Assembly (NCBI GenBank): GCA_024277435.1 | Contig: JAJRVJ010000028.1 | Location: 14,114 to 78,113, forward strand | DNA from: Patescibacteria group bacterium | GTDB lineage: Bacteria; Patescibacteriota; Patescibacteriia; UBA9570 | DNA length: 64,000 bases | Direction of reading: 5' to 3' | Notes under the pieces: model-generated | The model's input: only the letters and a program-made list of their open reading frames with translations | What the model was told of the DNA's origin: nothing | Database searches by the model: none | Program-made: the position numbers and the translations under genes | In this document: in pieces, positions 17,493-50,467 of the stretch | How the letters are laid out: every line of letters begins with the position of its first letter | Position numbering within the stretch: the stretch's first letter is position 1

Positions 17493-18038
17493 TTGATGAC
17501 TATTTCTAGCAAGGAAATCTATACTGCAGCGCAACACATAAAGTCCGGTGGAATTGTAATTTATCCAACCGATACAGCATATGCTATTGGCTGTGCATTT
17601 GATAATATGCCAGCGATTCGTGCAATTATGAAGTTGAAGGGTCGTAAAGATGTAAAGTTTACAATTATTGCCTCATCATTACAGCAGGTTCAAAAGTATT
17701 TCTCTCTTAATGCCTAACAAAAAAAATTAGCCAAGCGACATTGGCCAGGCGCTCTCTCAATAGTAGTATCGTCAAAGTTTGCTGTGCGCGTGCCGAATTA
17801 TTATCCGGCTCGTAGTTTAGCCCGCCGAGCTGGTAAGCCACTCATTGCTACTAGTGTAAATATTTCAGGTCGAGCAGTACATTATAATTTGCGTAACCTC
17901 CATAAAAAATTTATCAGTAAAGATATTGCTATACTTAATGCCGGGATTCTTTCAAAAGATAAACCATCTACCGTTGTTGAATGCAAAGATAGTAAATTAA
18001 TAATTCACCGCCAAGGATCGGTAGATATATATGTATAA
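17493..18038 (+). pseudogene. tsaC: L-threonylcarbamoyladenylate synthase TsaC/YrdC interrupted by a single in-frame TAA (17715-17717)
   Basis: The two ORFs (17493-17717 and 17784-18038) are in the same frame. The N-terminal part has YPTDTAYAIGC and the C-terminal part has LAKRHWPGALS...GKPLIATSVNISG. The frame is continuous apart from the TAA, which sits next to an A8 run. Confidence 0.7.
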
Positions 18039-19786: not shown

Positions 19787-22700
19787 ATGAGCAAGGGTAA
19801 GCGTTTCCAACAATTCATTACTAGCCTCACAGTTGGGGTATTAATGCTAACAATGTTGGTACGTCCAATGCCGGCTCGTGCTCAGGGTATTCCGGTAATC
19901 GATGTTACACAGATTTCCCAGGAAACTGCTCAAACAGTAGGTCAGAAGATTCTAAAAGCCCTAGGAAATGCAGCGTTAGGCGCTATTCGTGGATCATTAA
20001 ATGCCTTTCTTCAAAAATTAGCCTACGATACAGCCACATGGATTGCTACTGGTGACCATGGTCAGGATAGTTTATTTGTTACCGAAGATGATGAGACATT
20101 TTGGTCGAATGCTGCTGATGTTGCTGCAGGCGGTGCTATTGAACAAGCTGCTACAGCAGCTGGATTAAATGCAGCTGGTATTTGTAATCCGGGTGGTGAT
20201 TTTGGTATTAATCTTACCCTTGGTTTAGATGTTACAGCACAGCAACCATATAAGCCGGCTTGTACGTTAAGTGAATTAAGTGGTAATTGGGAAGAAGCAT
20301 TTTCCGATCCAAATTTTGGTGACCTAGTGAATATGCAATGGGATTCCACTGCAAATCCACTAGGTGCATCATTAGAAGTGGAAAACTTACAAATTGTTGC
20401 TAGCGCTGAAGCGGTAGATGCAGCAAAATCAGAATCAGCGAGAGAATTTAAACAGGTTACAGAAACTGTTTCTGGCTACGTTAAAACTCCTAGCGCTACT
20501 GTAAAACAACAATTAGCAACCACGCAGTTAGCGCAAAATGAAGCCTGGCAGTTATTGGGCAATCCAGTTGTAGATGCTGTTGCGGTATTCTCTACCACAC
20601 TTACCTCAAAGCTTATGGAGCGCTTAATGACTGGTTTAGCGGATGCCAAAGCCGGTAACGGATTAAGCGCTATTATTTCTGGTGAAGGAACCGGCGCTGC
20701 TTCCGGTAGAGCTGCTGCGCAGGCACGGTTTGCAGAATTGCGCCAGCCAGTATTTGCATCTAGCGGCACCTTTGATATCATCGCTGAATTATCATCTTGT
20801 CCAGATGACGTTGGTTTACGTACTGTAAATAATTGTTCTATTGGTCCAACAACGGCCATTGCTATCCAGGAGGGTTGGACGACTCAAGAATTGGTTGATT
20901 ATTTTGAAGAGGTTGGAAATGATTTTCGTTTTGTCGATGAAACGCTTACCGCGCAAGAGGTAGCGCAAGACGCTGGTATTACCTATCAGGGTATTTTGGT
21001 ATTAAAAAAATACCGTATTATTCCTGTAGGTTGGGATTTAGCCGCCCAATATATTAATGATGATTCCAATCAAGAAAGCAAAACATTATCAGAATTAGTA
21101 GATGAATTTGATAATTGTGATTCGGGTGATGACTATTCCCCATACTGTAAATTAGTTGATCCGTATTGGGTATTAAAAGCGCATGCAAATTTTTGCCAGC
21201 GGGAAGCTCCTGGCCCAGACTTTGCATCAAAAGATAAAATTGATGATGATGTAAATGCTGCCACTCCAGAAGCTATTATTCTTAATCGTTTAAATTACTG
21301 TGCTGATAACCGCGGCTGCATTCAAGAGGAAGAAGAGGGCGTGTGTACTGCTTATGGATATTGTACAGAAGAAGAACGCACCTATCGTTTTGCTGGTGAT
21401 ACGTGCGATGAAGAATATGCAAGTTGTGAAACATTCACCAATGAAGATGATGAAGATATCTCCTACTTGAAGAGTAGTATTAATTACAATGATTGTGCAA
21501 CGGATCCTGGGTGCCAATGGTATTGCTTAAGCACTAATGAATCTGGTTTATATGATTGTGCTAGCCCAACCGAAACCTTCATTACCTGTAACGAAGACTA
21601 TGCAGATAGTGATGCAGTATATAGTTATGATGAGCAAGTATCATGCGCTTGTGAGGTGCAAGATACGTGTATTGTTCGGGCTGGTTCTGATTTAGGTGAC
21701 GATAGTGGTAGTTATGAATATATCGAGGAAGGTGATTCATCAGCATCCGATACGGTGGCTGATGGCATTTATGATTTTTACCAATGTCGAGTATATCCAG
21801 ATGCATCACAGCCAGATGCATATGCTATATGTGACTTAGGCGAAGCTTGTGGAGCTGGTAATCCAAATTATGATGATTCCTTGGGGTATTGTACGTGTAC
21901 AATTGATTACTCTTGTGATGCTGATAGCGGTGATAGCTCTTGTGAAGCAACTGTCACAGGTGATAATGATACCGATGGAGATGGAGTGGATGAAACACTA
22001 ACTATTGGTTGTGATTTAGATGATGAAGATGCTGATTCTTCAGCTGATTCTTGTACATCTGAATACTCAACATACAGTGATGCGCCAGTATGTTCACCAA
22101 GTGGATCTATTAATTGTGGTGACACGTGTATTGTTTCTGACGGCTCAAGTAGCTGTACGAATAGTTTAGGTAATACCTGTGAAGATGGTGGGGACTTAGA
22201 TAGCGATGGTTCCGTTAATGGGGAATGCACATTGGCAGATACCTGTGATATTAGCGATGGTCAGTTTAGTTGTTCTACTGACAACGGTAATTTATGTGTC
22301 ATTGGAACACAAGAAGAAGATCCAGCAGAGGAAAATGACACTATCTATTTTGATGCTAATGTTCAAGAATGTGACAGTGGTGATGCGGGATGTAGTAATT
22401 ATATTCGCACTCTAAGCGATACAAATATTCTACCAAACTCACAATTTAATTATTATGATGGTGATCTTGATGATTCGTCAACGGATTTTGTTGGCTTTTG
22501 CACACATGACGGTAGTGGTTGTTACACTGATGCAGATTGTTATGAAGATGTGAATGGTGATGGCCTAGCTGATACTTCAGACCCAGCAGAGCAGGTTGGT
22601 GAATGTAAGGGTTGGATTCAATCTGACGTTGCCGCGCAAGTAGTTACACAATCTACACTTGGATTAACTCCAATCTACGGAGAAAATGCCTTACAAGTTA

Positions 22701-25700
22701 TTGCTGATGGCGATGCCTCAACAACTGGTAACGTGTATGCAGAAGTTGATACCGGATATACATTAGCCGACCGTACGTTTAGTCTGGCGTATCGCGCATA
22801 TTCAGGAGAAGCTACATTATATGATTGTGATTACAGCTTTTCACTTGGTGGTATCGAAAGTGATGGTACAGAGTATGTATTAGATACCATTACATCTATT
22901 GAAGTTGACGACACAACAACTCTAGATGCGTATGAAAGTGATTGGAATGAGTACTACGGAACATTTACGTTTCCAGAAGATGGTGATTCAACCTATAGTA
23001 GCACTGGCTCTCCAGGAACAACGATTAAGCTGTCTATTCAAAATCATGATGATTGTAGTATTAATATTGATGCCGTTCAATTAGTTGAAGCTGAAGAATA
23101 CGATACGAGCTTCTCAGCTTACAATGATAACAATAGTATATACTTGAACTCTTCAAATAGTTGTGAACCGGAAGATGTTGGTTGTGAATTATATGTTGAA
23201 GATGGTCGCGACGAAGAAGATGGTATTCCGGGTAAGATTACTAATCCAGAATCAGATGTCTGTGTTGATGCTTCGGGTAATTATAACTACGACAATCCAT
23301 CATGTAATCAATGTGATGGTAACCCAGCTGAAGATCAGGATGATAATTATTACGCTGGTTGTGATTTTTACCAAGAAGTAAGCTTAGATCGTACTATTCC
23401 AATTACTACCGATTATGGATCATTATTAAGTACAGAAGAGCGCGACGGTATTATGCAGCGCTACGGTGGACGATGTTCATCCGATCCTTCCGAGAGTTGT
23501 TTCGAAGCCTCAGATTGTTCTACGAGTGGTGATGTATGTGAATTGCAAACATCAATCGTGCCATCTTCTGGCCAACAATGTCCGGCATCAGTAGTTGGCT
23601 GTGAAGAATACACAAATTTAGAAGCAGCTGCAGAAGGTGGTGAATCACTATCGTACTACAGTGAGTTGCAACAATGTGTGAAAGAAAATGACGATGACAC
23701 AGATACCTTCTTTACATTTGAAGGTAGTGATGATGGTGGTATTCAAATTACAGATCATTTCTTAAAGGTTGTTCACGATACAGGAACTGCTAATGATGGT
23801 GCTCCATGTACTACCCTAGATTGGGAAAACGAAAGTTACAATGCTGATTGTCAGGACTTTGTAACTGTTACACCAAATGATTGTGGCCCTAGTGGTGATG
23901 ATGTATATGGATCCGACCTAGATTGTCGCCAATATATTAATGATGAAGGTGATATATTCTATCGTTATGAATCGGAAGTAATTATAGCTACCGATGAATG
24001 TACAACACTGCGTAATACGCTTGATACACGAGTATACTTCGCAGTGCCAGGTGATAGCGCTAGTTGTTCAGCTTCGTACAATGGATGTCGTGAATATAAA
24101 GGTACCGATTCTGGATCGGCGCTAGATGTTGTTGATGAAGAGTTCGATAGTAATTCTACAGAAGAGTGGGTTGGTGCCGATACCACAAGTAATGAAGAGG
24201 TATTACAAGGTGGATATTCCTTAGCTCTACATACAGCAACTAGTTCAGCTTCTAGTGACTTTTCTGGCTATACTGAATATGAAGAAATTACCTACGATTT
24301 ATGGCAAGAGAATGATGGTGAAACCGTTGGTACACTTACTCCTGGTCAATCGTATGTACTATCTTTCTGGGCTAAGGTAACTGATGCAGATGCACAATTA
24401 TTAGCATCTATTGATCCACTAATGTCATCAGTAAATACATATTATTATTTTACTAACGATGGATCAGATGATACTCGAGCAGATTCGGCTATTGATCTTG
24501 ATCCAAACAGTGAAGGGGACTGGCAATTCTATCAACTTGGCCCTATCATTCTTGATGCCAGTGCGGAAGAAGATGATCAGAGCGTTACCTTCAACTTACA
24601 ATTCATGGATACAACTGGTTCAGCTGAAGGGTATATTGATAATATTTTACTTACGGAATCAGATAGTCAGTATCTTATTCAAGATTCCTACAATTATTGT
24701 TTAAATTTTGAGGGTTGTCGAGAGTATAAAGATCGTAATGATAATACACATTACCTAAAATCCTTTGATCGTTTATGTGAAGAGGGTGCCGTTGGTTGTG
24801 AGGCACTTATTAATACATATAATTCCTCCAATCCATTTACCGAAGGCTATAATTTTGATAATGAATATGATGAAGATGATGTGGTTGTACAATACGATCA
24901 GCCAATTACATTAGTATACGACGAGGAAAATGAATGCTCGTCTGAGGTAAGGGCTTGTAAAGCGGTTGGATTGCCAGAGGTAGATGAACGCACCGGATAT
25001 GTTGAGGAGTTTACTACTACATATTTACGTGACCTACCAGATGATTATACATCAACATTATGTGAACAGCCGCAATTAAGCTGCCAAGCCTATGAATCTA
25101 CGTATGATGGAACAGTATATTTCAAAGACCCTGGTGATAAGGTGTGTACGTTAGAGGAGTATACTACGGATGAAGGAACCTTGTTGGGATGGTTTAAGAA
25201 AGATAGTGATGCTACAGAGCCAGATTGTCCTGTACAGTACGATTATGCAGATAAGTCGTATCCATTAGGTGGGTTATGTAACAGTAATAGTGTGAGCTTT
25301 GATGAGGATGGTTCGGTAAATGATAGCTTGATTGGGGAATTATGTAATTCGGATAGTGATTGTTATCCAAGTGGCTGGTCTAGTAGTGATCCGCGACCAC
25401 GCTGTATTTCAAATCCAGAAGATGATGTTGATTTATTTGATGGCAGTGTTCATCAATACGCCATTCGTGCAAATGATGAATTATCACTAGATACTGATGA
25501 TTTTGGTTGGGTTGGTACATGTCCATCAAGTCAATCGGGTTGTACAGAATATATTGATCCGTATAGTCCAAATATCGAAGAAATTACTCGTAACTGGAGC
25601 TTTGAAAATGATGTGCGTAATCAACAGGATACGTATTATGCTAATGAAGAAACCGCTGATGGATTCCCAGACTACTGGTACGTAAATAGCAATGCTGGTG

Positions 25701-27517
25701 AGGAAGGTACTGGTGAATATGAAGATGCTGATGAGGATGGTTTTGCTGATGATGAAATCATGGTAAATACCACATTGGATCTAGATAATGATGGTACAGC
25801 TGATTTCCCAGCTGAGTGTCATTCATATTTACCAACCGAAGATACATATCCCGATGCATATGTGTATGCAACCTATGGTGCATCTACGAACACAGCTGCG
25901 ATGACTAACTCTAATGATTATTCAGATGTTGATGTAACTCCGGTGGATGGAGATTCTGCTCTATTTATTGAAGAATGTGCATTAGAGAATAATAAGCTCT
26001 TTTCATACGAGCGCGATAAATTATATACATTGTCTGCCTTTGTAAAATTACCTCTTATTCCTGAAGATGATCGTGAAACAATTTTACCAAACTATGAATT
26101 CAGCATTGGCTTACGTTACTATGATGAAGACTTTAATGAGGTAGAAGTAGATGATAGTGATCAAATGTTTATTGTGGCCGACCATGCCACTATCGAGCCT
26201 ACTTCATACGCTGTAGATGATTCTGATAATCAAAGTGAATGGTATAAATGGCAAGGGAATATCGGTATAGGATCAACCGTAGAATTTCCAGATCCAGATA
26301 CCAATGGTAATTGTAATGGTGGAGTAGGTCCATTTATAGATTTCAGTAGAACAAGTTGTGAAAATGGAGGTGGAGAATGGTATGAAATAAAATATGCATC
26401 TCCATTTGTGGCTAATCATTATAGTAGTCCAATCTGGTTTGATGCAGTATCGTTTAAGGAAAACGACAAGTATTATTATCTTGACTACACCGTTGATGGA
26501 ACTTCCGAGCATGATTCTGAATTTGATTTTACTACTTGTGAAGGCACTGATGGGGAAGGTGAAATTACATCCGATGGTGGTTGCGTAGGATTCCGTGACA
26601 CCACATATGATTCACAAATTATCTCGCAAGATAGCATTGAATGTGCAACCTGTTTATTAACGCCAAATTCAGATAGTTGCCGTAATGTGGTAGACGCCTG
26701 TGATACGAATGCAGTTATTAAAGTAAAACGAGATCGCGTATGTAGTGAGTGGCTGGCTTGTGAAACTGCTGCTGTAGTTACGGATGAAGAGGGTAATGAA
26801 GCAAGCCAATGCTTCTCAATTGGTCGTTGCGTTGGCCTTGATGAAGATGGAAATTGTATCGATTGGAAATTAAAACCAAGTACCGACGAGTTAACCACTC
26901 TTACCGATCTTCATTACACAACTGCTGGTGGTGATAATGATGAACTAAGTGCCATCCGTAACTTAACCGGATATAGTAAGGTAGGTATGACATGGCTTGA
27001 TACTCAGGTATGTGATGGTGGTGAATCAAGCGGTGAATCTTGTGAATACGATACCGATTGTGGACCAATTTATGGTAGTTGTTCTGGTGATGAATGTGTG
27101 AGTGGAGATAATCTGGGAGATATTGGTTGTCAGGCTGATGCGGATGATAATGGTGTGGCGGAATCTTGTGGTGAAACGGGTACGTACTATGAATGTAGAG
27201 CTCCAATTGAAGTGCAGGGTTATTTTCCATATGGCTGGATGGTAGAAATTGGTGGTGATGGCGCTGAGGCGGAGAATGACTTTATCGAGCACCGTTCTTT
27301 CGAGAATCTGTATTGTGCTGGTGAAGATGCCGATCCTACACAGGCTTGTATAGTGAATGCGAGTGGCTTCGGTGAAACTAGTCCTAGCCCTTCGGCGGGA
27401 AATTGCTTCCGTACCGAATTTGAAGATCGATTAACCAATGACGATACCGATGTTGGAACTACTGATAATCCATATACATATGTAGAGGGAACTGATCTTG
27501 ATGATTATCAAGGTTAA
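19787..27517 (+). CDS. Giant secreted cysteine-rich acidic protein, part 1 (2576 codons)
   Basis: Signal peptide MSKGKRFQQFITSLTVGVLMLTMLVRPMPARAQG. Very long open frame rich in Cys, Asp, Gly, Thr and Ser. It ends at a TAA that is in frame with the downstream ORF. Confidence 0.8.
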   Translation: MSKGKRFQQFITSLTVGVLMLTMLVRPMPARAQGIPVIDVTQISQETAQTVGQKILKALGNAALGAIRGSLNAFLQKLAYDTATWIATGDHGQDSLFVTEDDETFWSNAADVAAGGAIEQAATAAGLNAAGICNPGGDFGINLTLGLDVTAQQPYKPACTLSELSGNWEEAFSDPNFGDLVNMQWDSTANPLGASLEVENLQIVASAEAVDAAKSESAREFKQVTETVSGYVKTPSATVKQQLATTQLAQNEAWQLLGNPVVDAVAVFSTTLTSKLMERLMTGLADAKAGNGLSAIISGEGTGAASGRAAAQARFAELRQPVFASSGTFDIIAELSSCPDDVGLRTVNNCSIGPTTAIAIQEGWTTQELVDYFEEVGNDFRFVDETLTAQEVAQDAGITYQGILVLKKYRIIPVGWDLAAQYINDDSNQESKTLSELVDEFDNCDSGDDYSPYCKLVDPYWVLKAHANFCQREAPGPDFASKDKIDDDVNAATPEAIILNRLNYCADNRGCIQEEEEGVCTAYGYCTEEERTYRFAGDTCDEEYASCETFTNEDDEDISYLKSSINYNDCATDPGCQWYCLSTNESGLYDCASPTETFITCNEDYADSDAVYSYDEQVSCACEVQDTCIVRAGSDLGDDSGSYEYIEEGDSSASDTVADGIYDFYQCRVYPDASQPDAYAICDLGEACGAGNPNYDDSLGYCTCTIDYSCDADSGDSSCEATVTGDNDTDGDGVDETLTIGCDLDDEDADSSADSCTSEYSTYSDAPVCSPSGSINCGDTCIVSDGSSSCTNSLGNTCEDGGDLDSDGSVNGECTLADTCDISDGQFSCSTDNGNLCVIGTQEEDPAEENDTIYFDANVQECDSGDAGCSNYIRTLSDTNILPNSQFNYYDGDLDDSSTDFVGFCTHDGSGCYTDADCYEDVNGDGLADTSDPAEQVGECKGWIQSDVAAQVVTQSTLGLTPIYGENALQVIADGDASTTGNVYAEVDTGYTLADRTFSLAYRAYSGEATLYDCDYSFSLGGIESDGTEYVLDTITSIEVDDTTTLDAYESDWNEYYGTFTFPEDGDSTYSSTGSPGTTIKLSIQNHDDCSINIDAVQLVEAEEYDTSFSAYNDNNSIYLNSSNSCEPEDVGCELYVEDGRDEEDGIPGKITNPESDVCVDASGNYNYDNPSCNQCDGNPAEDQDDNYYAGCDFYQEVSLDRTIPITTDYGSLLSTEERDGIMQRYGGRCSSDPSESCFEASDCSTSGDVCELQTSIVPSSGQQCPASVVGCEEYTNLEAAAEGGESLSYYSELQQCVKENDDDTDTFFTFEGSDDGGIQITDHFLKVVHDTGTANDGAPCTTLDWENESYNADCQDFVTVTPNDCGPSGDDVYGSDLDCRQYINDEGDIFYRYESEVIIATDECTTLRNTLDTRVYFAVPGDSASCSASYNGCREYKGTDSGSALDVVDEEFDSNSTEEWVGADTTSNEEVLQGGYSLALHTATSSASSDFSGYTEYEEITYDLWQENDGETVGTLTPGQSYVLSFWAKVTDADAQLLASIDPLMSSVNTYYYFTNDGSDDTRADSAIDLDPNSEGDWQFYQLGPIILDASAEEDDQSVTFNLQFMDTTGSAEGYIDNILLTESDSQYLIQDSYNYCLNFEGCREYKDRNDNTHYLKSFDRLCEEGAVGCEALINTYNSSNPFTEGYNFDNEYDEDDVVVQYDQPITLVYDEENECSSEVRACKAVGLPEVDERTGYVEEFTTTYLRDLPDDYTSTLCEQPQLSCQAYESTYDGTVYFKDPGDKVCTLEEYTTDEGTLLGWFKKDSDATEPDCPVQYDYADKSYPLGGLCNSNSVSFDEDGSVNDSLIGELCNSDSDCYPSGWSSSDPRPRCISNPEDDVDLFDGSVHQYAIRANDELSLDTDDFGWVGTCPSSQSGCTEYIDPYSPNIEEITRNWSFENDVRNQQDTYYANEETADGFPDYWYVNSNAGEEGTGEYEDADEDGFADDEIMVNTTLDLDNDGTADFPAECHSYLPTEDTYPDAYVYATYGASTNTAAMTNSNDYSDVDVTPVDGDSALFIEECALENNKLFSYERDKLYTLSAFVKLPLIPEDDRETILPNYEFSIGLRYYDEDFNEVEVDDSDQMFIVADHATIEPTSYAVDDSDNQSEWYKWQGNIGIGSTVEFPDPDTNGNCNGGVGPFIDFSRTSCENGGGEWYEIKYASPFVANHYSSPIWFDAVSFKENDKYYYLDYTVDGTSEHDSEFDFTTCEGTDGEGEITSDGGCVGFRDTTYDSQIISQDSIECATCLLTPNSDSCRNVVDACDTNAVIKVKRDRVCSEWLACETAAVVTDEEGNEASQCFSIGRCVGLDEDGNCIDWKLKPSTDELTTLTDLHYTTAGGDNDELSAIRNLTGYSKVGMTWLDTQVCDGGESSGESCEYDTDCGPIYGSCSGDECVSGDNLGDIGCQADADDNGVAESCGETGTYYECRAPIEVQGYFPYGWMVEIGGDGAEAENDFIEHRSFENLYCAGEDADPTQACIVNASGFGETSPSPSAGNCFRTEFEDRLTNDDTDVGTTDNPYTYVEGTDLDDYQG

Positions 27518-27880
27518 TATTGGGGTGGAGCATCAGCTGTATATGAAGAGCCAAGTTATTATTGTCCAAATACTCCAGAATTTGGTTTATGGCCATTTGG
27601 TGGATTTGAAGATGGTACGGATACCGAATATACTCAACATGGTTGGCAACCAATTGGTGATACTTCTGTATTTGTAACACAATACGATTATAATTTTAAA
27701 ACTGTTCTTAATGAATTTTCAGGGCGTGATACCAGTGAATTCACTTGTGATGAAGATTGCCCTGAAATTGACGTAAACAATGTATTACAAGTTGAGCCAG
27801 TTGTTACTACAGGTGGTGATACAGGTGGCGTACAATATGATTTCTACGACACCTTTACGGATCCATCTACTGAATTAGCC

Positions 27881-30800
27881 TTGAGTTTTGATGCTCGTTT
27901 TGATGGTAACTTTGAAGAGATAGGTGAAAGTGATGACCCAAGTACAGTGTCGGCGTGCTTAAAACACAATAATATGGTATTTATTGGTGATTGTGATTCT
28001 AGCTCTCAGTGTACGAACGATTCTAGTATTTCTTGTACGGATGATCTAGATGGTGATGGCCGTGATTTTGAATGTGATGTTGCAGTTTCCCGCCAAGACT
28101 GTTGGTCGGAAGGGCGAAGTTCGGCGGACATTGTATTCATTATGGATACTTCCAGTTCTACTTCTACGTACTTAGAAAATACACGTACATCTATTCCTAA
28201 TCTAGTAGCAGAGTTAGAGCGTCGTGAAATAGCGGCGAAATATGCGGTGATTGATATGGATAGTGATGGCAGTTCTGCAATGACAACATTAGAATTACAA
28301 GTGACATCAGACGTTGAGGATATTTCAAATACCTTTGATAGTGATAGCTCTGTATGTTCTGGCGTAGATTTTTATAATACTGGCGTAAGTTGGCGTAATG
28401 ATGACCCATGTCTAAACTCTTCTGGTGCTAGCGTTGATCCGTATGCTGCTATTGCAGACGTACTTGAAAATAATATTCAGGCATATAACTCGAATAGTGA
28501 GGGCGGTACGTTATCATCCGCTGATCTTGCTATGCGCGGAAGTGCATTACCAATTATTATTCTTGTTACAGATACAGGTGATGAGTATAGCAGCAACATT
28601 TATGATGAAGCATACGTATTAGATTTATTTTACGAAACGGAAGCAATAATTATTGCAGTAACTCCAGATACGTTATATAGTTCGTATGGCGATGCTGCTT
28701 CTTACTATAGTGGAATTACAAGTGTATCTGGCGGTGAAGTAATTACAGCAATTAACGATGCAGATTGGACAGCCGATGGATCGGTAATTGATAGCCTTGT
28801 AACTATTATTGAAGAAGAGGTGGATCAGTTCCAGTTTGATAATATCATGCAGAACTATGCACTTGGTCCTATTACACTAGATAATCGATCACTTGAGGAT
28901 GGTGAATTAGGGGCAGCGGAAGGTAAGTTAATTACTTCAGAATTAGAACTTCGTGCATCTGATAATTCTGTATTTCAAATCGATAACGTATCATTAAAAC
29001 CTGTATTATTAGCTTCTCAAGAAGTGGAAGTAGATCCTATCGGTCGTACCTGTCGTGCATGGCCAGCTAGTGATTCATTGCAGTGTGAATATACCGATAC
29101 AAGTGGAGCACAGTATCAAGGTTGGCGTGGATATTGTTTAGAGTCTGATCCATTCAACCGTCGTCGTTGTATTACGTGGTGGCCACTGGATTACTTATCT
29201 GGTGAAGCATCCATTACTAAACGTGAATCAGCTGGATACGATGGTCGCACTGAATTACAGTATTGTTTAGTAGCTAAAGGATATGAAGATCCTGGGTTTT
29301 GTGATCAAGCCGAGTGGGATGATAGCGGTGATACCATCACTTATGGCGATGGCCAGATATGTACTGACGATTCTCAATGTTCATCTGGTACATGCGTGAA
29401 GAGTGTGCGTCACACCGTGGATGATCCAACAAGTTCATCTTCTAAGCCAAACTTTTCTACGCCACTTACTACAAATGCCCCTGAAGATGGCTATACATAT
29501 CGCATGCGTTGGCAAACTAACGATCCAAACGCCATGGAGCATGGAACATTGTATGAGCAATATTTAGCCAACGGTTTTGATCTTGATGATTTGGTAGAGT
29601 CCTTCTTCTTAAGTCCATTCACACTGCTAGATAGTAGCGATGATATTAAAGTAGATGCGGCTACTGTAGTGCGTTTGCCAGCTAGTGAAGTATTACGTAA
29701 TGTACATGTGAGTGAAATTGAATCGATTATTTTCAATACCGGTTCCGCAGGATTTGGCGATGAATCCGTCAGTAACGGACCGGAATGGACATATTGGGGG
29801 CAATTAGGTAAAACAGGGGATACCGGCCTTACTGGTGCTACAGCTGACGTTACAGAAACGTATGTAGATGGTGACGGTAATGCAATTAATCCGGAAGATA
29901 ATGATAACGAATGTGGTACCAATGGGTTTGATTGTAATAAATATGGTAATTGGGTAATTTCTGATTTTGCAGAAGGTAGTATTAATCAAAATGATGATGG
30001 GTCTCAGAAGCCATGGGAAGATTGTTATGCGTATCGTGCAAATGATGGATTGGATATTGATACAATGGGAATTGGTTGTAGAGTATGGGGTGCTTATGAT
30101 AGTAATTATGAACTAGATTACTATGATGATGCAGAAAATTTTGATTACTATGATACTAGTGGAAATTCAACTGAGATGGATATTGTATATACCTGGGCTT
30201 GGAGTAATTTTGATTATGGCTTAGGTACGGCTGATGATGCTGATGCAACTGATTATAATTGTAATACAGGTAGCTCAACAAATGAAGATAAGTATCCATA
30301 CCGCTGGGAGAATTTGGAGGACAGAGAAGATCTATGGTTTGATTCGCCATGTATTGGCGATGCTGTAAAACAGGTGATGGGAGTGGAAGGTTCTGGTAGC
30401 CAGAACCCATGGAAGCGTTTAGGTAATGCTGATAATCTTAATAACTGTATTGAATCATACGAAGGTGAATTTAGTTCTGAGGAGGTCAAGATATGTGTAG
30501 AGGAAGATCCTGGCGATAACTGGTCGGCCTGGACAAGCTGGACAGAACGTTTAGCTATTGAAGATGAAGACTGGGGAGCGTTTGAACAGCATAGTTCTGG
30601 CGGTAATAATATTTTCTCGCTATGGATTGATGTAAATAGCGATGGATATATTTCTGCCGTATATTATCTTATCTATACTGGAGCTATGGGTACGTACGAT
30701 TTTGCTACTTCAGTGGATGCTGCAAACTTCAACTTAACCTTCGATAACGACATGAGCCTTGATTTTCAATTACGTGAAAGTTGTGCGCTAGTAGTAGAGG

Positions 30801-32011
30801 CAGTGGATTCATCTGGTGATAACGTGGCTTGGGCAGAACGAGCTAGTACAGGTAGTGATTATAATATGGATCATGCCGCAGATGATAGTGGTTACGAGTA
30901 TTCCACAGAATATGATACGTATGGTGCAATTGCTCCAATTCCATCTACCGATAGCATATTCTTATATGATACGTTGTTAGAAGCACCAGATAATATCTAT
31001 AAGTGGGGTAGCTATAGTTATCAACCATTTGTATTTGTGGATTATGCTGATACTTTCACCGCTGGTAGACCACTATCGTGTATTGGTGAGTGTGAGCAAA
31101 AATGGTGTGTAAGTGATTTTGGTGAAGGTTCCTTTTATGATCAAGGTGATGGAATCTGTTCAACGAGTGATGATTGTAGCGATGGCGGAGTATGTGTAGG
31201 TGTAGGCCGTGAGGAGATTAGCGGTGAAGGCTTGAGTAGTGTAAGTAGTTATGAGGACCAAATAGTGCAAACCGCTGTTGCAGGCCGCGATCGCTTAAAG
31301 CATGTGTTTGCGGATGTAGTGGGTAGTTATTATCGACCAGCGTATCGGGTAGATTCAGCTTCTCGCATGTATAATACTGATACTATCTATGGAGCAGATG
31401 GTTACTGGTTGAATGATCCAACAGATTCTTCCTCGGGAAATATCTTTGATGACATGGTAGTATGTGATGGCAATGAGCGTGATGATAACGATAAAGGGCT
31501 TGATGCAGAATATTGTGGTGTGCGCCCAGTAATCGATGATCCTGAAGATCCTATTGCCTTCGATGATCAAACTGCTTATACGGAAAATAAATATACCATT
31601 ACTAATGGTAAAACCGTTACGCTTAGCTTTACTTCAGATGTAGATCCAGAACAAAAGCCATTGAAATCAATCTATATCGATTGGGGAGATGGTAAAACAA
31701 CTAGCGATCCATGGGATGCTGATACCACAACGCATTATTATACACATTCATATCAATGTGGCCCAGAGTACCAGCAGTATACTGAAGAATATTCAGCAGC
31801 TGATGGTGGCACCTGTGTATATAAGCCAAAGATTACCGTTGTAGATAACTGGTTATGGTGCTCTGGTAATATCACCGATGCAACAGCATTGCCTACTAGT
31901 GGTAATCAGTATCGGTCGGCGGAGAATGTGGGTAATGCACTAGAAAGCTGTAATAGTTGGGATACACCTAATTTTGATATCGAAGTAGTATCTGGTAGTG
32001 GTTCAAGCTAA
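27881..32011 (+). CDS. Giant secreted protein, part 2 (vWA-domain-containing), probably continuous with part 1
   Basis: The frame is open from 27518, directly after the TAA of part 1, with no ATG before the TTG at 27881. vWA MIDAS motif DIVFIMDTSSS at about 28130-28160 and IILVTDTGDEY. Same amino acid composition as part 1. Confidence 0.75.
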   Translation: MSFDARFDGNFEEIGESDDPSTVSACLKHNNMVFIGDCDSSSQCTNDSSISCTDDLDGDGRDFECDVAVSRQDCWSEGRSSADIVFIMDTSSSTSTYLENTRTSIPNLVAELERREIAAKYAVIDMDSDGSSAMTTLELQVTSDVEDISNTFDSDSSVCSGVDFYNTGVSWRNDDPCLNSSGASVDPYAAIADVLENNIQAYNSNSEGGTLSSADLAMRGSALPIIILVTDTGDEYSSNIYDEAYVLDLFYETEAIIIAVTPDTLYSSYGDAASYYSGITSVSGGEVITAINDADWTADGSVIDSLVTIIEEEVDQFQFDNIMQNYALGPITLDNRSLEDGELGAAEGKLITSELELRASDNSVFQIDNVSLKPVLLASQEVEVDPIGRTCRAWPASDSLQCEYTDTSGAQYQGWRGYCLESDPFNRRRCITWWPLDYLSGEASITKRESAGYDGRTELQYCLVAKGYEDPGFCDQAEWDDSGDTITYGDGQICTDDSQCSSGTCVKSVRHTVDDPTSSSSKPNFSTPLTTNAPEDGYTYRMRWQTNDPNAMEHGTLYEQYLANGFDLDDLVESFFLSPFTLLDSSDDIKVDAATVVRLPASEVLRNVHVSEIESIIFNTGSAGFGDESVSNGPEWTYWGQLGKTGDTGLTGATADVTETYVDGDGNAINPEDNDNECGTNGFDCNKYGNWVISDFAEGSINQNDDGSQKPWEDCYAYRANDGLDIDTMGIGCRVWGAYDSNYELDYYDDAENFDYYDTSGNSTEMDIVYTWAWSNFDYGLGTADDADATDYNCNTGSSTNEDKYPYRWENLEDREDLWFDSPCIGDAVKQVMGVEGSGSQNPWKRLGNADNLNNCIESYEGEFSSEEVKICVEEDPGDNWSAWTSWTERLAIEDEDWGAFEQHSSGGNNIFSLWIDVNSDGYISAVYYLIYTGAMGTYDFATSVDAANFNLTFDNDMSLDFQLRESCALVVEAVDSSGDNVAWAERASTGSDYNMDHAADDSGYEYSTEYDTYGAIAPIPSTDSIFLYDTLLEAPDNIYKWGSYSYQPFVFVDYADTFTAGRPLSCIGECEQKWCVSDFGEGSFYDQGDGICSTSDDCSDGGVCVGVGREEISGEGLSSVSSYEDQIVQTAVAGRDRLKHVFADVVGSYYRPAYRVDSASRMYNTDTIYGADGYWLNDPTDSSSGNIFDDMVVCDGNERDDNDKGLDAEYCGVRPVIDDPEDPIAFDDQTAYTENKYTITNGKTVTLSFTSDVDPEQKPLKSIYIDWGDGKTTSDPWDADTTTHYYTHSYQCGPEYQQYTEEYSAADGGTCVYKPKITVVDNWLWCSGNITDATALPTSGNQYRSAENVGNALESCNSWDTPNFDIEVVSGSGSS

Positions 32012-32020
32012 TATATAAGT

Positions 32021-34825
32021 ATGATGAAACGTATTCTTGCACAATTCAAGCCAAATTTTCTAGCGGTAATTGCTATTGGGTGTATTGTTGCATTCACTAC
32101 AGTAATGCCTACTTTAGGGGAGGCTGGTCTTCTAGAATTTTCTAAAGATACAGTATTATATCTTGTGTCAGCTATTGCGTACTTCTTCTTGATATACATC
32201 ATGGGTAAATTAGCTACCCTTGGAACAAAGTTAGTGGTTACCACAGCGTATTTTAAGAATTTTACAGATTTACCAGCTGTTATTGAAGGTTGGCAAGTGG
32301 TGCGAGATCTTTCCAATATGTTCTTTATAGTAATTCTTCTAGCTATAGCGTTTGGTACGTTATTTAGAATTGAAGCCTATTCTTGGAAAAAGCTCTTACC
32401 AAAAATGGTATTAGCCGCTGTACTCATTAATTACTCTCGTGCAATTGTAGGTGTAGTTGTGGATGCGTCTCAAATTATCATGCTTACATTTGCTGAGGCA
32501 GTAGCAGCAGCAGCCGACAAAGGAATTGCTAAAGCCTTTAACTTAGGTGATTTATTATCATTTGGTACCAGCGTGTTGCCGGATGGGTCAGCATCAAATA
32601 ACCCGGCGGTAGCTTCTCCCGAGCAGCGTTTATTAGGTATTGTAGCTGCCGGATTAATGTTATCGGTATTAGTAGCTGTACAATTTACCTACGCCGCTGT
32701 ATTAGCTGGCCGTTTAGCGATGATTTGGTTTTTAACAGTGCTGTCTCCGTTGGCATTCGTTATGATGGTATTACCATCTACCGAGAAGTATTATAAACAG
32801 TGGATGGAAATGTTAGGGCGGTATGTAACGGTAGGTCCAATGATATTATTTTATCTCTGGTTATCCATGTTCATTGGCTCCAAGGCTGGAGAAAATTTAG
32901 CAACACAAGCTACAAGTAAAAACCTTGGTGAATTTGTAGATCTTAGCAATGGAGGGTCTGCCGCTGATGCTGTACGTCCAGATATTGTGGTGTCATTTCT
33001 TATTTCCACCATGATGTTATTAGCTGGTTTGAAAATGGCAAATGATAACGCATCCGAAATGGGTACTATTACTAGTAAGGCATCTTCGGTTGGCCAGTTT
33101 GTGGCTAAAGCTCCGCTAAAGTATGGTGCCAAACCAGTAGCAGGGTATGCCGCAGATAAGGTATACGAGGGTACTGGTTTAGATATGAACTTGGTGCGGG
33201 TGGCTAACCGTTGGAAGGAAGGCTTAGATGAGTCACGTAAGAAACGTGAACTACGTGGCCGTACTAAGGCTGGTGAGGCGTATCGAAATGGTAGCTTGTT
33301 ACATGGTGCGTTGGGAGCTGGTGATGAAGTTGTAGAAAAAGGCTTAACTGTAGATCAATTTCGTGGTGGTATTCAAGGGAATTTGGGAATTACAGCTGCT
33401 TTAAATGCAATTAGTGGAGATGCAAAGATTGGAGATAGAATCTCTATGAGTAAGCAGGGGCGTTATAATAGAGCCAGAGAGCGTGAGCAAAATCTACGGG
33501 ACGCTCATATAGCAGCTAGTGGAAAATTAGCATCTGATAAAGCGGATTTGGAAAAGAAGCATATGACGGTGCGTGATTTTGAGGCTGAAAAAGCTCGTCG
33601 TGAAAATGGAGTAACGCGGGCGGATGATCAGGCTGCAGCGTTTGCTGCTGGTGGAGGATCCATTAAATTAAATATGGAAAAGGCGGATGATAGAGCGTTA
33701 CTTGAAGCGCGCAAGAGTCACTTAGAATTATTACCAACCAGTCCAGCTATTCAGGCTGAGTTAGGGCGCCTTGATAAGGCAATGGGTACCTCAGGAGAGT
33801 TTACGCTTACCGATGCAGATGTGCAGTTAAGCGGAGCTGATGGAGCATTAGATTTATTGAAGAAGGAAAGAGAAAGTCATCGTGATCGTTGGAATGCAGA
33901 TAGAGGTACTATCACAGACGGTGATCGTATACACACTGGCTCTGATCTGGAATCATTTATTAGCGGTAAGCTATCTGGCCAGCAAGATGATGTTAATAAA
34001 TTAAAATCATCACTAGATGCCGCTACTAATGCCCGTCGCGATCTGGCGCCAGCCCTAACCATGAATACTGAATTGCAGCAACGTTCCGTTATTGGTGAGG
34101 CTAAGAAAAAGATTGTTACTAACGATTCCTCAGAATTATCCTCCAACTTTTTAAATGCCATGCTGCAAGGCAGCTCTCGCGGCCCGGAGGCTTTAGCGCT
34201 CCTAGAGCGATTAGCAGAAACTGGTAACTATAATGATGCACTTGGTGCTATGCGAGATTTTTACTCTTCCCAGGGAGATGACGCTAAGGCTAGTACTTTT
34301 TCCTACGGGTATCAAGGTATTCAAGCTTTATATAAAGAATTACAAGCTCGCACTGGCATGAATGATCAAGCTATTTTGAGTTCTATCCATTATGCTGGGC
34401 AGAAAGCTAAGGATTCTAACCACACCCCACTAACCGAAATTACTGAAGTGGTTGATGGAAGAATTCAGATGCGTCCACAGGAATTGGCAGAAGCTATTGC
34501 TATTGGTGAGGAGAATAAGAAAGATGCTATGTCTGTATCTAAATCAACTCGCCTACGGATACTTGATGGTGATTTTCATAAAGGTGAGATGGGGTATTTA
34601 GATAATATGGCAGCCAACATTATGGATCAAACAGATACCCGTGGGCGCATTCGTATGACAAGAAATCTTCTTGAGGAGCTAATAAAAGGCGATACAAAAA
34701 CCCTCATTGATGGCATGACGCGCTGGCAGCATTTTGCAAAAATGACCATTGATAAACATGGCAAAGAGGGGCGTGCAAAAATGAACGAGTTATTAGATCG
34801 TATGAATTATAGTGAACGAATTTAA
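32021..34825 (+). CDS. VirB6/TrbL-like polytopic membrane protein with a long coiled-coil C-terminal domain (T4SS inner-membrane component candidate)
   Basis: Six to seven transmembrane helices in the first about 330 aa, then a hydrophilic coiled-coil region of about 550 aa. Its position before PrgI-like and VirB4 genes mirrors Gram-positive T4SS order (PrgH-PrgI-PrgJ). Confidence 0.45.
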   Translation: MMKRILAQFKPNFLAVIAIGCIVAFTTVMPTLGEAGLLEFSKDTVLYLVSAIAYFFLIYIMGKLATLGTKLVVTTAYFKNFTDLPAVIEGWQVVRDLSNMFFIVILLAIAFGTLFRIEAYSWKKLLPKMVLAAVLINYSRAIVGVVVDASQIIMLTFAEAVAAAADKGIAKAFNLGDLLSFGTSVLPDGSASNNPAVASPEQRLLGIVAAGLMLSVLVAVQFTYAAVLAGRLAMIWFLTVLSPLAFVMMVLPSTEKYYKQWMEMLGRYVTVGPMILFYLWLSMFIGSKAGENLATQATSKNLGEFVDLSNGGSAADAVRPDIVVSFLISTMMLLAGLKMANDNASEMGTITSKASSVGQFVAKAPLKYGAKPVAGYAADKVYEGTGLDMNLVRVANRWKEGLDESRKKRELRGRTKAGEAYRNGSLLHGALGAGDEVVEKGLTVDQFRGGIQGNLGITAALNAISGDAKIGDRISMSKQGRYNRAREREQNLRDAHIAASGKLASDKADLEKKHMTVRDFEAEKARRENGVTRADDQAAAFAAGGGSIKLNMEKADDRALLEARKSHLELLPTSPAIQAELGRLDKAMGTSGEFTLTDADVQLSGADGALDLLKKERESHRDRWNADRGTITDGDRIHTGSDLESFISGKLSGQQDDVNKLKSSLDAATNARRDLAPALTMNTELQQRSVIGEAKKKIVTNDSSELSSNFLNAMLQGSSRGPEALALLERLAETGNYNDALGAMRDFYSSQGDDAKASTFSYGYQGIQALYKELQARTGMNDQAILSSIHYAGQKAKDSNHTPLTEITEVVDGRIQMRPQELAEAIAIGEENKKDAMSVSKSTRLRILDGDFHKGEMGYLDNMAANIMDQTDTRGRIRMTRNLLEELIKGDTKTLIDGMTRWQHFAKMTIDKHGKEGRAKMNELLDRMNYSERI

Positions 34826-36677: not shown

Positions 36678-37241
36678 ATGCAGCAATTTGTTGTACCACA
36701 ATTTATTGAGGTGGAGTCCAAGGTAATTGGTCCAATTTCGGTACGGCAATTTATCATTCTTCTTGTTACCGCGGGTATCATTTATATATGGTTTGAATTA
36801 TTTAGCTTAGTTGTTTTTGCTATACTAGGAGTGGTGACGTTAGCAATTGGTGGTGTATTTGCTTTTGCAAAGGTAAATAGTCAGTCATTCCATGTATTTC
36901 TATTGAGTTTTATTCAAACAATGAAGCGACCAAAGCTTTCTGTTTGGCGAAGAGAGCATCCGATAAAGGCAATTGAAAAGAAGGGTCGTAAAGATAAGAA
37001 GGATAAGAAGGACGATACAGAATTTACACCAAAGCCTGATGTATCGCAATCACATCTAGCAGAGCTGGCACTTATCATGGATACTGAAGGACAGTACTCT
37101 CCACAAGACATAGAGCAATTACGCAAGGAGCAGCACGCAGAGGTACCAGCTCCAGTGCAATTACCAAAGGATGACCTTGTAGATCTTAATGCTGAGCAAC
37201 CAAGCCCTCAAAATTCTAATGAACGAGAACAGCAACAATAA
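36678..37241 (+). CDS. PrgI/VirB3-like small two-transmembrane protein
   Basis: VPQFIEVESKVIGPISVRQFIILLVTAGIIYIWF followed by a second transmembrane segment matches the PrgI (PF12666)/VirB3-like pattern. It sits immediately upstream of VirB4. Confidence 0.5.
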   Translation: MQQFVVPQFIEVESKVIGPISVRQFIILLVTAGIIYIWFELFSLVVFAILGVVTLAIGGVFAFAKVNSQSFHVFLLSFIQTMKRPKLSVWRREHPIKAIEKKGRKDKKDKKDDTEFTPKPDVSQSHLAELALIMDTEGQYSPQDIEQLRKEQHAEVPAPVQLPKDDLVDLNAEQPSPQNSNEREQQQ

Positions 37242-37258: not shown

Positions 37259-38011
37259 ATGGCTAAAAAGAAAAAGCAAACAACTTCAAAAAAGGCAAAG
37301 GCCGAGGAGCTTAAAGCTCGGCAAGCTGGTGGCGGAATGAAAAAGAAGCGTAAGTCTGCACCAAATTCTCAGAGTAATATGCCTATTGCTGAGGTTAAGC
37401 AAGATACGGTTCTTTTAAAGGATGGTACGTTGCGATCTGTATTAGAAGTATCTTCAATTAACTTTGCGTTGAAGAGTGCAGATGAACAACAAGCTATTAT
37501 TCAAGGATATATTCAGTTTTTGAATTCTATTGATTTTGAACTACAAATTGTCATTCAGTCCCGCAAGCTTGATATTTCAAAATATCTTGAACAGCTCGAT
37601 AAATTAGCTAAGGAGCAAACGAACGAACTATTAAAAGTGCAAACTGTTGAATATCGTCAATATATCGATGAGTTAGTAACCTTATCGGAGATTATGGAGA
37701 AACGTTTTTTTGTAGTAGTTCCGTATTCACCATTTTCTAAAAAACGTAAAAGTTTTTTTACTCGAGCGCAAGAAGTATTATTTCCCAGCCGTGTAATTAA
37801 ATTGGCCGATAATAAATTTGCAAAATATAAGAAAGAACTCGATCGTAGAGTGGGAATTACCGCTGGGGGATTATCTTCAATTGGTTTAAAAATTGATATG
37901 TTAAGCACACAACGTTTAATTGAGTTATACTATCAAATATACAACCCAACTCGTGGAACTAGTAAAAAATTACCAGACCTAAATGATTTGCGAGTTGAGC
38001 AAGCAGGATAA
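37259..38011 (+). CDS. VirB4/TrbE/PrgJ N-terminal domain (CagE_TrbE_VirB-like)
   Basis: VLLKDGTLRSVLEVSSINFALKSADEQQAIIQGYIQFLNSIDFELQIVIQSR matches the VirB4 N-terminal motif pattern. It ends at TAA 38009-38011, in the same frame as the next ORF. Confidence 0.55.
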   Translation: MAKKKKQTTSKKAKAEELKARQAGGGMKKKRKSAPNSQSNMPIAEVKQDTVLLKDGTLRSVLEVSSINFALKSADEQQAIIQGYIQFLNSIDFELQIVIQSRKLDISKYLEQLDKLAKEQTNELLKVQTVEYRQYIDELVTLSEIMEKRFFVVVPYSPFSKKRKSFFTRAQEVLFPSRVIKLADNKFAKYKKELDRRVGITAGGLSSIGLKIDMLSTQRLIELYYQIYNPTRGTSKKLPDLNDLRVEQAG

Positions 38012-39947: not shown

Positions 39948-40568
39948 ATGAATAGAAAATTACTTATCGCTATCGTTGGATCTGCCGCAACACTACTACT
40001 TATTGTAATTGGTGTTGCCATTTGGGCTACAATGAGCAATGTTGCAACTAAAGATGGTGAACAAACTAATGAAGTGAATGCTAATCAAGGCGTTACCACT
40101 AAGAATACCAATAGTACATCTACCTCTTCTGGTAATGAGGGAGTAGATATAAATAGTTCTGGAAGTACTTTGTCTGGTAATAGTTTGGCTGAAGCGAGTA
40201 CGGATGAAGAATCGATTATTCGATTAGCAAAGAGTTTTACTCAGCGCTTTGGTTCTTTTTCTAATGATACGGATTATGAGAATATAGAGTTGTCCAGGCC
40301 ATTCATGACGGAAGACATGATAAATCGCACAAATGCACTCATCATTCCACAGGATGATAATGCTGAATTTTATAGTATTTCTACGCAATCTATTGATGTA
40401 GATATTGTTGATTTTGGAGAAGGGGCAACTGGTGCTACCATAGAAGTAGGCACTCGCCGAACGGAGCGTAAGGGCTTAGATAATCCGGTGAAATTTTCTC
40501 AAACAGCTCGGCTGGAATTAAAGAAAATTAGTAATCAATGGAAGGTTGATAAATTTACTTGGAAATAA
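39948..40568 (+). CDS. Membrane-anchored 206-aa protein (possible VirB8/PrgL-like component)
   Basis: N-terminal transmembrane segment plus about 120-aa extracytoplasmic domain of the size expected for an NTF2-like VirB8 fold. Position immediately after VirB4. No sequence motif was recognised. Confidence 0.45.
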   Translation: MNRKLLIAIVGSAATLLLIVIGVAIWATMSNVATKDGEQTNEVNANQGVTTKNTNSTSTSSGNEGVDINSSGSTLSGNSLAEASTDEESIIRLAKSFTQRFGSFSNDTDYENIELSRPFMTEDMINRTNALIIPQDDNAEFYSISTQSIDVDIVDFGEGATGATIEVGTRRTERKGLDNPVKFSQTARLELKKISNQWKVDKFTWK

Positions 40569-40585
40569 ATAATCGAAAGTCTCTT

Positions 40586-42979: not shown

Positions 42980-43747
42980 ATGAGTAAATCAAATTCACAG
43001 TACAAATATTACGCAATTATTACCCTGGCAATCTTTGGATTACTTTTTTTGATTAGTACGTGGTTTTTTATTCGAGTTGCTATTTTAGGATCCGCTGATA
43101 CTATTCTCATTAATAATGAATCATTAACCAGTGAGGACGTAATAAAAATCCAAATGCAGAGTCCGGAATTTAAAGACCCGCTTATTACTGTTGTGCCAGA
43201 GGATCAACAGAGTATCAGCAGTAAATCTAAGGTATTTATTTCAAATATCGATCCATCACTTGGCTCAGATGAATCCAGGGCCTTTGTTATCATTTATGGT
43301 AATTTTGCAGATCCACAAGTAAGTGATTATATACTTTGGGCAACTAACATTGTTGAGGATTATGATGGCAATGTAACTGTTGTATGGAAAGATTATGTTT
43401 CACCAGATGATGAGCGGGCTACAGCTATGGCAGTGCGAGCACATTGTGCAGCTGAGCAAAATCGTTTTTGGCAATTTGCTGATGCATTGCAGAATCGTGA
43501 GTCAGATGATGATGCTACATTGCTATCACTTACTCTAGCGCTTGGTATGGATGAGTTAACGTTTAATGAGTGTTTGGATTCCGGAGGATATGAAGCGATA
43601 GTTGAGCAGAACTACTTTGCTGGGAATAATTATAGCGTATCAAATGGTCATACGCTATTTGTGAATGACCGGCAATACAATGAATTGATTTCTGAAGAAG
43701 AACTAAGAACAAGTATTGACGAAGTTCTCGTTGAATTTAGCGAATAA
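42980..43747 (+). CDS. DsbA-like thioredoxin-fold protein (Thioredoxin_4-like) with a degenerate CxxC site, membrane-anchored
   Basis: C-terminal AHCAAEQNRFWQFADAL matches the DsbA/BdbD signature A..C..EQ.KFW.FHD.LF. The position where CxxC is expected reads FADPQ. Confidence 0.45.
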   Translation: MSKSNSQYKYYAIITLAIFGLLFLISTWFFIRVAILGSADTILINNESLTSEDVIKIQMQSPEFKDPLITVVPEDQQSISSKSKVFISNIDPSLGSDESRAFVIIYGNFADPQVSDYILWATNIVEDYDGNVTVVWKDYVSPDDERATAMAVRAHCAAEQNRFWQFADALQNRESDDDATLLSLTLALGMDELTFNECLDSGGYEAIVEQNYFAGNNYSVSNGHTLFVNDRQYNELISEEELRTSIDEVLVEFSE

Positions 43748-43757
43748 TAAAAGAAGC

Positions 43758-50376: not shown

Positions 50377-50467
50377 GGAGAGGTGGCTGAGTGGTTGAAA
50401 GCGGCAGATTGCTAATCTGTTATACGGGTTTTTTCCCGTATCGAGGGTTCAAATCCCTTCCTCTCCT
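50377..50467 (+). tRNA. tRNA-Ser (anticodon GCT)
   Basis: Acceptor GGAGAGG/CCTCTCC, anticodon stem GCAGA/TCTGT with loop TTGCTAA, long variable arm TACGGG-TTTTTT-CCCGTA, T-loop GTTCAAATCC. Confidence 0.75.

Follow-up and report, generated by a model that had tools for sequence, protein, structure and literature searches.

A giant gene of a Patescibacteria type IV secretion-like cluster interrupted by a single, probably very young in-frame TAA

Results

Two open reading frames in one frame

What lies at positions 19787–32011 of the Patescibacteria chromosome segment analysed here, a stretch of 64 kb that we call the window? On the forward strand, an open reading frame (ORF) runs from an ATG at 19787 to a TAA at 27515–27517, comprising 2,576 codons, and directly behind this stop the same frame, frame 2, is open again from 27518 to a TAA at 32009–32011, for another 1,497 codons. 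The whole region spans about 4,075 codons (12.2 kb) with this single TAA inside, and is referred to below as the giant gene. After the internal TAA, neither ATG nor GTG nor TTG occurs in frame for 121 codons, the first of them being the TTG at 27881, codon 122. This bears out the original prediction of two ORFs in one frame, parted by a TAA and lacking an ATG up to that TTG, and extends it to GTG. The parts of the region are given below; identities refer to P0002, a protein of 4,044 residues described in the next section.

19787–27514, forward strand: N-terminal 2,576 codons, from the ORF and its translation; 60.6% identity to P0002 over 2,502 aligned residues
19787–19882, forward strand: putative Sec signal peptide, N-terminus MSKGKRFQQFITSLTVGVLMLTMLVRPMPARA/QG, judged by eye
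27515–27517, forward strand: in-frame TAA, in an acidic linker between conserved blocks
27518–27880, forward strand: 121 start-less codons, recognized by coding score, invariant columns and alignment to P0002 from residue 2589 onward
27518–32011, forward strand: C-terminal 1,497 codons and the true stop, TAA 32009–32011; 48.4% identity to P0002
27881–27883, forward strand: TTG called as a start by mechanical ORF calling; first codon of the database protein P0001, 1,376 aa
about 27644–27997 and about 28850–29002, forward strand: beta-sandwich strands flanking the vWA domain, from an AlphaFold model
28070–28837, forward strand: von Willebrand factor A (vWA) domain, integrin beta I-like, from a sub-threshold PF00092 match, AlphaFold and Foldseek

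The signal peptide that had been proposed for the first ORF does look Sec-like. It is followed by a conserved helical N-terminal region with a LAYDTATWIA motif and then by Cys-rich acidic modules, and no Pfam or NCBIfam model matched this N-terminal part, 19787–27514. A likeness of the N-terminal region to VirB5/TrbJ, suggested by the stretch GIPVIDVTQISQ, was unsupported, the model reaching a pLDDT (predicted local distance difference test) of 55 and yielding no fold match. Overall, the giant protein contains about 150 Cys. As to composition, the original prediction held it to be identical across the junction. It is similar, both sides being rich in Asp, Glu, Gly, Thr, Ser and Cys, but it is not identical: going from the upstream part through the 121-codon gap to the downstream part, Cys accounts for 4.2, 2.5 and 2.8% of residues, Asp for 12.0, 9.9 and 11.9%, Gly for 8.2, 10.7 and 8.1%, and Thr for 8.3, 12.4 and 7.3%.

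The TAA stands in the context GGT TAA TAT TGG GGT, which is translated across the junction as …DLDDYQG-x-YWGGASAVYEEPSYYCPN…, with x for the stop. No Shine-Dalgarno (SD)-like site was found in frame near it. The near-cognate start codons in the start-less stretch amount to ATT 27653 and ATT 27767, both without SD-like upstream sequence, and two start codons close to the TAA, TTG 27520 and ATG 27543, stand out of frame and open short ORFs. SD-like sequences are generally missing from the genes of the window, whose starts (for example 18031, 19787, 32021, 34834 and 38015) follow short AT-rich TATA(T) or TAATAT junctions, which suggests SD-independent initiation in this lineage. Near the TAA, no terminator was found and promoter-like sites show no excess, and the RNA downstream of it shows no structure, with a minimum free energy z-score of +0.78 and 155 of 200 shuffles folding at least as well.

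Nevertheless open as a frame, the start-less 121 codons read as real coding sequence of the giant gene. A hand calculation from about 40% GC puts the probability of 121 open codons at about (1-0.063)^121 = 4e-4, and that of 1,497 codons is negligible. The codon-usage score of the stretch is +0.64 bits per codon in frame, where the gene mean is 0.54 with a standard deviation of 0.12, and -0.84 and -1.55 in the other two frames. It carries motifs that the family of relatives has conserved, namely YYCPN, WPF, GW, QY and ID.NNVL, aligns to equivalent positions in other proteins of 3,400–5,100 aa, and contains predicted beta-strands (residues 43–108 of the AlphaFold model introduced below). The TTG at 27881, in turn, encodes the Leu of a conserved LSFDARF motif, falls within strand 119–128 of the predicted beta-sandwich and has no SD-like sequence upstream; it is not a real start.

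Relatives of the giant gene

Do relatives of this region have a single gene or a pair? With the 1,200 residues after the TAA as query, an exhaustive, profile-free HMMER search found 218 proteins. In the best non-self match, P0002, query residues 11–1199 align with target residues 2589–3747, and this position is the one expected if the two ORFs are fused (2,576 + 1 + 11). Eight more matches of 3,600–5,100 aa and four of 3,350–3,500 aa align at equivalent internal positions. The gene for P0002 lies in the locus L001 (GCA_040960315.1), where synteny with window positions 9978–41600 extends to every gene. A tblastn comparison of P0002 (residues 4–4039) with the window yields one segment, 19799–31984, which runs straight across the TAA at 52% identity and contains no further stop or frameshift in the giant gene. 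The other proteins of L001 likewise give one segment per gene, and among these other syntenic genes only the one for Sua5/YrdC is not intact in the window.

An alignment-based scan of species-representative genomes added breadth, with 77 loci that are mostly labelled Patescibacteria (the closest Ca. Kerfeldbacteria, others Parcubacteria, Falkowbacteria, Buchananbacteria, Uhrbacteria, Komeilibacteria and Microgenomates). Nearly all of them, about 60–70 Patescibacteria loci, have a single stop-to-stop ORF of 2,100–4,559 codons over the match, and in the 14 whose tblastn alignment spans the junction there is no stop at the TAA site. A relative from a JGI metagenome (L080), 36% identical, is continuous across the junction as well, and two copies (L011 and L047) are interrupted by N runs, away from the TAA site. 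The proposal of a single adhesin-like gene interrupted by a stop is supported by these orthologues, P0002 being a single ORF collinear through the TAA. The comparison with orthologues found the TAA in no relative examined, and instead of two separately initiated genes the relatives have single giant ORFs.

Three matches that seemed to begin near the junction, as if the split were recurrent, were rejected as such. P0016 is cut by a contig edge, its frame being open to the end of L002, and P0004 and P0010, whose first residues are L and V instead of Met, were taken as partial calls truncated at an edge. Separately, giant genes in metagenome-assembled genomes (MAGs) are occasionally broken at positions other than the TAA site, as in two distant relatives: in L077 (JBBTRH010000005.1, 1870–18247) the gene lies in four frame-shifted pieces without N runs, and in L040 (2–8428) it is possibly fragmented into two same-frame pieces about 690 nt apart, again without N runs.

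Several further searches returned nothing. A query of 826 aa that spans the junction, with X for the stop, had no match in a word-indexed protein search; blastn against a plasmid collection and a single-protein scan of genome contigs gave none either, whereas the alignment-based scan gave the loci described above. A near-identical population was sought in the JGI metagenomes, where the exact pattern with NNN at the stop had 0 matches and a peptide-pattern scan turned up only L080.

Constraint and age of the stop codon

The linker that holds the TAA, between two conserved blocks, is acidic, hypervariable and rich in indels, and in a 12-member family alignment the column of the TAA is a gap in all other sequences. 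Where relatives have longer linkers, T, S or V occupies the site or a position close to it, the sequence reading G-(T/S/V)-x-F in pairwise tblastn alignments where the window has G-stop-Y-W. A single-base origin of the TAA, for example from TCA, would be plausible.

How strongly is the sequence behind the TAA constrained? Across the twelve distant members of the family, the giant gene keeps 328 of 335 invariant columns, namely 245 of 248 upstream of the TAA, seven of eight within the start-less 121 codons and 76 of 79 beyond them. For the downstream invariant columns, the window copy retains 83 of 87, and intact members left out in turn retain 83 of 84–89. The ratio of downstream to upstream identity is 0.80 with respect to P0002, within the 0.74–0.88 seen for all family pairs; the weaker conservation of the C-terminal part is, by this comparison, a family-wide property. 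Measured against outgroups, the downstream part of the window copy is 38.8% identical to P0003 (P0002, 39.3%) and 35.6% identical to P0007 (P0002, 35.6%). Neither these identities nor the invariant columns reveal detectable relaxation of selection downstream of the TAA. In the coding sequence of the window, 4.65% of random substitutions create stops, and as no further stop occurs in 4,491 nt, a hand calculation limits neutral divergence since the lesion to less than about 1.4% at 95%. On these grounds the TAA lesion is very young and lineage-specific. We are quite confident that 19787–32011 is one gene carrying a non-conserved, very young TAA, either a recent nonsense mutation or a consensus error.

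A vWA domain behind the stop

The vWA domain that had been noticed in the downstream part is supported by its motif, by a sub-threshold profile match and by the predicted fold. The stretch DIVFIMDTSSS at 28127–28159 ends in DTSSS (28145–28159), a DxSxS motif of the metal-ion-dependent adhesion site (MIDAS) type at the end of the first beta-strand, and its residues D210, S212 and S214 do not vary in the family alignment. On the isolated segment, PF00092 reaches an E-value of 4.5e-4 and 20.9 bits, which is below its gathering threshold of 23.8, and it gives no match in a search of the whole protein. An AlphaFold model of 27518–29200 is of moderate confidence, with a mean pLDDT of 65 and a pTM (predicted template modelling score) of 0.64, with blocks of the vWA core at 75–87. 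In this model, an alpha/beta domain of Rossmann-like fold (residues 185–440) is inserted between beta-strands at residues 43–160 and 445–495. Foldseek ranks integrin beta headpieces highest for the model, along with other proteins of the vWA fold (probability 1.0, E about 1e-7), further vWA matches being PTMP1 and the vWA of TFIIH p44/Ssl1.

The predicted topology of the giant protein, beta-strands followed by a vWA domain with DxSxS and again by beta-strands, is that of the integrin beta headpiece. However, sequence identity is about 10%, TM-scores are only 0.25–0.44 and the model has the pLDDT given above; the predicted likeness is one of fold and topology, and stops short of demonstrating homology or function. 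Such an arrangement, a vWA domain within a beta-sandwich, suggests that the protein may bind a ligand on the host-cell surface in a metal-dependent manner.

The type IV secretion locus

The window is a segment of a Patescibacteria (candidate phyla radiation, CPR) chromosome with housekeeping genes for PNPase, Gmk, LspA, a Mg-chelatase-like ATPase, LeuRS, Sua5/YrdC, KsgA, RecG and ClpB. Directly downstream of the giant ORFs lies a type IV secretion system (T4SS) cluster of the Gram-positive type. The gene order is KsgA, a 290-aa protein, the giant gene, a membrane protein of 930–960 aa, a protein of about 600 aa (610 aa in the T4SS cluster of the window), PrgI, TrsD, VirB4 and pilin-like genes:

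32021–34825, forward strand: polytopic membrane protein of 934 aa with its own ATG; L001 orthologue 960 aa; VirB6-like by position only
36678–37241, forward strand: PrgI/VirB3-like protein (Pfam/NCBIfam)
37259–38011, forward strand: TrsD-like VirB4 N-domain protein (Pfam/NCBIfam)
38015–39913, forward strand: VirB4 ATPase (Pfam/NCBIfam)
40559–41623 and 43716–45056, forward strand: T4SS pilin-like genes (Pfam)
42980–43747, forward strand: DsbA-like thioredoxin (Pfam)

The 934-aa membrane protein has a composition unlike that of the giant protein, with 0.1% Cys and many Leu and Ala, and no Pfam match. Between 40559 and 45056 the Pfam models matched are PF18895, PF13462 and PF01323, and the DsbA-like thioredoxin would fit the formation of extracytoplasmic disulfides in a protein with so many Cys. 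The T4SS genes of the window match the repertoire described for Patescibacteria, in which the two-gene arrangement of TrsD and VirB4 is widespread (PMC12102498). In the window these two genes lie in the same frame and are joined by TAA TAT ATG, and the arrangement is conserved in L001, where the genes overlap in different frames, and in L002. We considered this pair as a second lesion and rejected it, seeing that it is conserved in both loci and documented (PMC12102498).

The giant gene occupies the position typical of its family, directly upstream of the genes for the large membrane protein, PrgI, TrsD and VirB4. With the other members (P0002, P0003 and P0005–P0012) it shares full-length collinearity, synteny, a signal peptide and the vWA module; unlike them, only the window copy carries a TAA at the site in question. 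Members measure 2,100–5,100 aa and have more than 100 invariant or near-invariant Cys, and Cys, Trp and Gly make up most of their invariant residues. The family has neither a Pfam nor an NCBIfam model, and no description of it was found in the searchable literature. A survey of Patescibacteria T4SS states that no adhesins were detected, and reports that the T4SS-like cluster is essential for epibiotic growth in one tested species (PMC12102498). The giant family, found in many CPR lineages and always at the head of the T4SS-like cluster, offers a concrete candidate for the adhesin or host-contact component that is missing.

Other interrupted genes in the window

Two more genes of the window are interrupted at single sites. 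The Sua5/YrdC (TsaC-like) gene at 17493–18038 on the forward strand has an in-frame TAA at 17715–17717, directly 5' of an A8 run and 10 kb from the TAA of the giant gene. Its L001 orthologue is an intact ORF of 195 aa with Ile (ATA) at the position of the TAA, and the residues flanking the TAA (…QKKLAKRHWPGALS…) are conserved. On the reverse strand, a tyrosine recombinase/integrase gene at 50671–51520 is shifted out of frame by one additional G in a G7 run (C7 on the forward strand, 51019–51025), one G fewer restoring the frame. It adjoins two tRNA-Ser genes, 50377–50469 and 50541–50628, and may be the remnant of an integrated element or the product of a homopolymer sequencing error. With the TAA of the giant gene, this makes three single-site lesions in 64 kb whose genes are otherwise intact, which fits a consensus of draft quality or a lineage accumulating recent mutations. 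By eye, no sequence motif common to both TAAs, such as one of a methylation-linked miscall, is evident.

Discussion

What would the giant gene encode, and what would its TAA do? We propose that the product is an acidic, cysteine-rich extracellular protein of about 4,075 residues, bearing a signal peptide and belonging to the T4SS-like cluster of Patescibacteria, with a putative adhesin-like role. The TAA at 27515–27517 is neither a gene boundary nor a conserved recoding signal, and would be a young, lineage-specific lesion of a single codon. As written, translation would stop at 27515 and leave an N-terminal fragment of 2,576 aa; lacking a start and a signal peptide, the downstream 1,497 codons would not be made. 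Should the TAA be real, the protein of this organism would be without its C-terminal binding module.

In these respects the region resembles the internal-stop ('disrupted') coding sequences (CDSs) of draft genomes and MAGs: a gene that all relatives carry intact has one in-frame stop, and gene callers emit two ORFs, here P0151 (2,576 aa) and P0001, the second from an arbitrary internal TTG. It differs from them in the unusual length of the gene, in the very young age of the lesion and in the presence of a second TAA-interrupted conserved gene 10 kb away. P0151 and P0001, the latter with a false TTG start, should be merged as one disrupted gene. The TAA itself is most likely a one-off, unimportant as a decoding phenomenon and of use as a flag for annotation or assembly.

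Is the young lesion a property of the organism or of the assembly? We regard a genuine recent nonsense mutation, possibly polymorphic, and a base-call or consensus error as about equally probable, each falling somewhat short of an even chance. Either origin meets objections, and together they weigh against the reading as a young lesion. Sequence alone does not separate an error from a real mutation, and no relative closer than 52% identity was found (cluster size 1). If the two nonsense codons stem from random substitution errors, about 40 errors are implied per 57 kb of coding sequence, and the single indel seen is unusual for the error profiles of long reads. A gene of the Sua5/TsaC type is normally essential, and a real nonsense mutation in it would be surprising. 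Finally, two genes contain an in-frame TAA although their conservation is otherwise perfect, which gives leaky decoding of TAA some scope.

The original prediction had offered four causes for the internal stop, and two of them, a sequencing error and a recent nonsense mutation, remain. Readthrough conserved in the family is refuted, since no relative has the stop and no stimulatory RNA structure is present; a natural split with translational coupling is refuted because there is no start codon, the relatives are unsplit, and the would-be start falls within a domain and a run of conserved residues.

The alternative that fares best is that the TAA is real and that full-length protein is made at some level by functional leaky decoding, be it readthrough by a near-cognate or suppressor tRNA or a ribosomal hop of 12 nt from GGT to GGT, yielding a mix of 2,576-aa and ~4,075-aa products. 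There are, after all, two TAAs in genes otherwise under normal constraint, one of them the Sua5/TsaC-like gene, and the linker at the giant-gene TAA would tolerate any residue or a deletion of three codons. Moreover, the codon before each TAA recurs in frame four to six codons further on (GGT at 27512 and 27524, GCC at 17712 and 17730), a coincidence with a chance of about 14% per site and about 2% jointly, as computed post hoc. Cases of programmed recoding are known in the A1 readthrough of phage Q-beta, the bypass in gene 60 of phage T4 and short tRNA hops over stops in Escherichia coli, and the giant gene shares with them an in-frame stop, an open coding frame downstream and an identical codon before and after the stop. 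Unlike these, its TAA lacks conservation and a stimulatory structure and stands in a strong stop context, TAA followed by T being the most efficient terminator in E. coli. TAA is also the usual stop here, ending about 30 of 40 ORFs in the window, often as TAATAT; no suppressor tRNA is found among the three tRNAs of the 64-kb window; a hop at the Sua5 site would remove the conserved residues QKKLA; and just two in-frame TAAs occur in about 19,000 codons. With the TAA missing from every relative, and with the coincidence of two interrupted yet intact-looking genes as its sole positive support, we consider leaky decoding of the giant gene improbable, and quite improbable the wider proposal that both TAAs, 27515 and 17715, are genuine and usefully decoded by readthrough, a suppressor tRNA or hopping, with both proteins functional. 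If true, they would be the first evidence of leaky or partially reassigned UAA decoding in bacteria.

An ancient inactivation of the giant gene, followed by ongoing decay, is highly improbable. An internal stop in a 12-kb gene and other lesions in the window would suit such an old pseudogene, but no second stop or frameshift has accumulated in 4,075 codons, the invariant residues are retained as in intact members, a relative-rate comparison shows no acceleration, and the remaining T4SS cluster is intact.

Least of all do we expect two natural genes, with the second half translated by coupling or re-initiation in the manner of TrsD and VirB4, an extremely unlikely arrangement for which the TAATAT at 27515 resembles the gene junctions of the operon and the same operon offers, at TAA TAT ATG, a genuine split of what is normally one protein, but against which stand the missing start codons, the out-of-frame position and short ORFs of TTG 27520 and ATG 27543, the invariant residues and beta-strands in the 121 codons of a domain that extends beyond the TTG, the lack of a signal peptide on the downstream part, and the unsplit state of every relative at the site, whereas TrsD and VirB4 are split in L001 and L002. 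The TrsD/VirB4 split, of the kind seen in MPF-FATA systems such as that of pGO1 and in Patescibacteria, does share with the giant gene adjacent same-frame ORFs, an intervening TAA TAT and the operon; it differs in having an ATG one codon past the stop, in its conservation in relatives and in being documented.

Other features of the window

At 59075–63942 on the forward strand lie two large ORFs of 748 and 876 aa without a confident domain, with a weak match to DUF7305. They and the giant gene have a similarly strong positive GC skew (~0.24), and they may be surface or pilus-associated. At the opposite end of the window, positions of about 400–1000 form a GC-rich island (55–65% GC against a background of about 40%) without a long ORF, which has no Rfam match even at E<=1. 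The island folds far better than shuffled sequences on both strands (z-scores of -7.9 and -6.4), contains several perfect hairpins of 10–13 bp and ends at a G8 run, 995–1002; it may represent a structured RNA or a foreign fragment.

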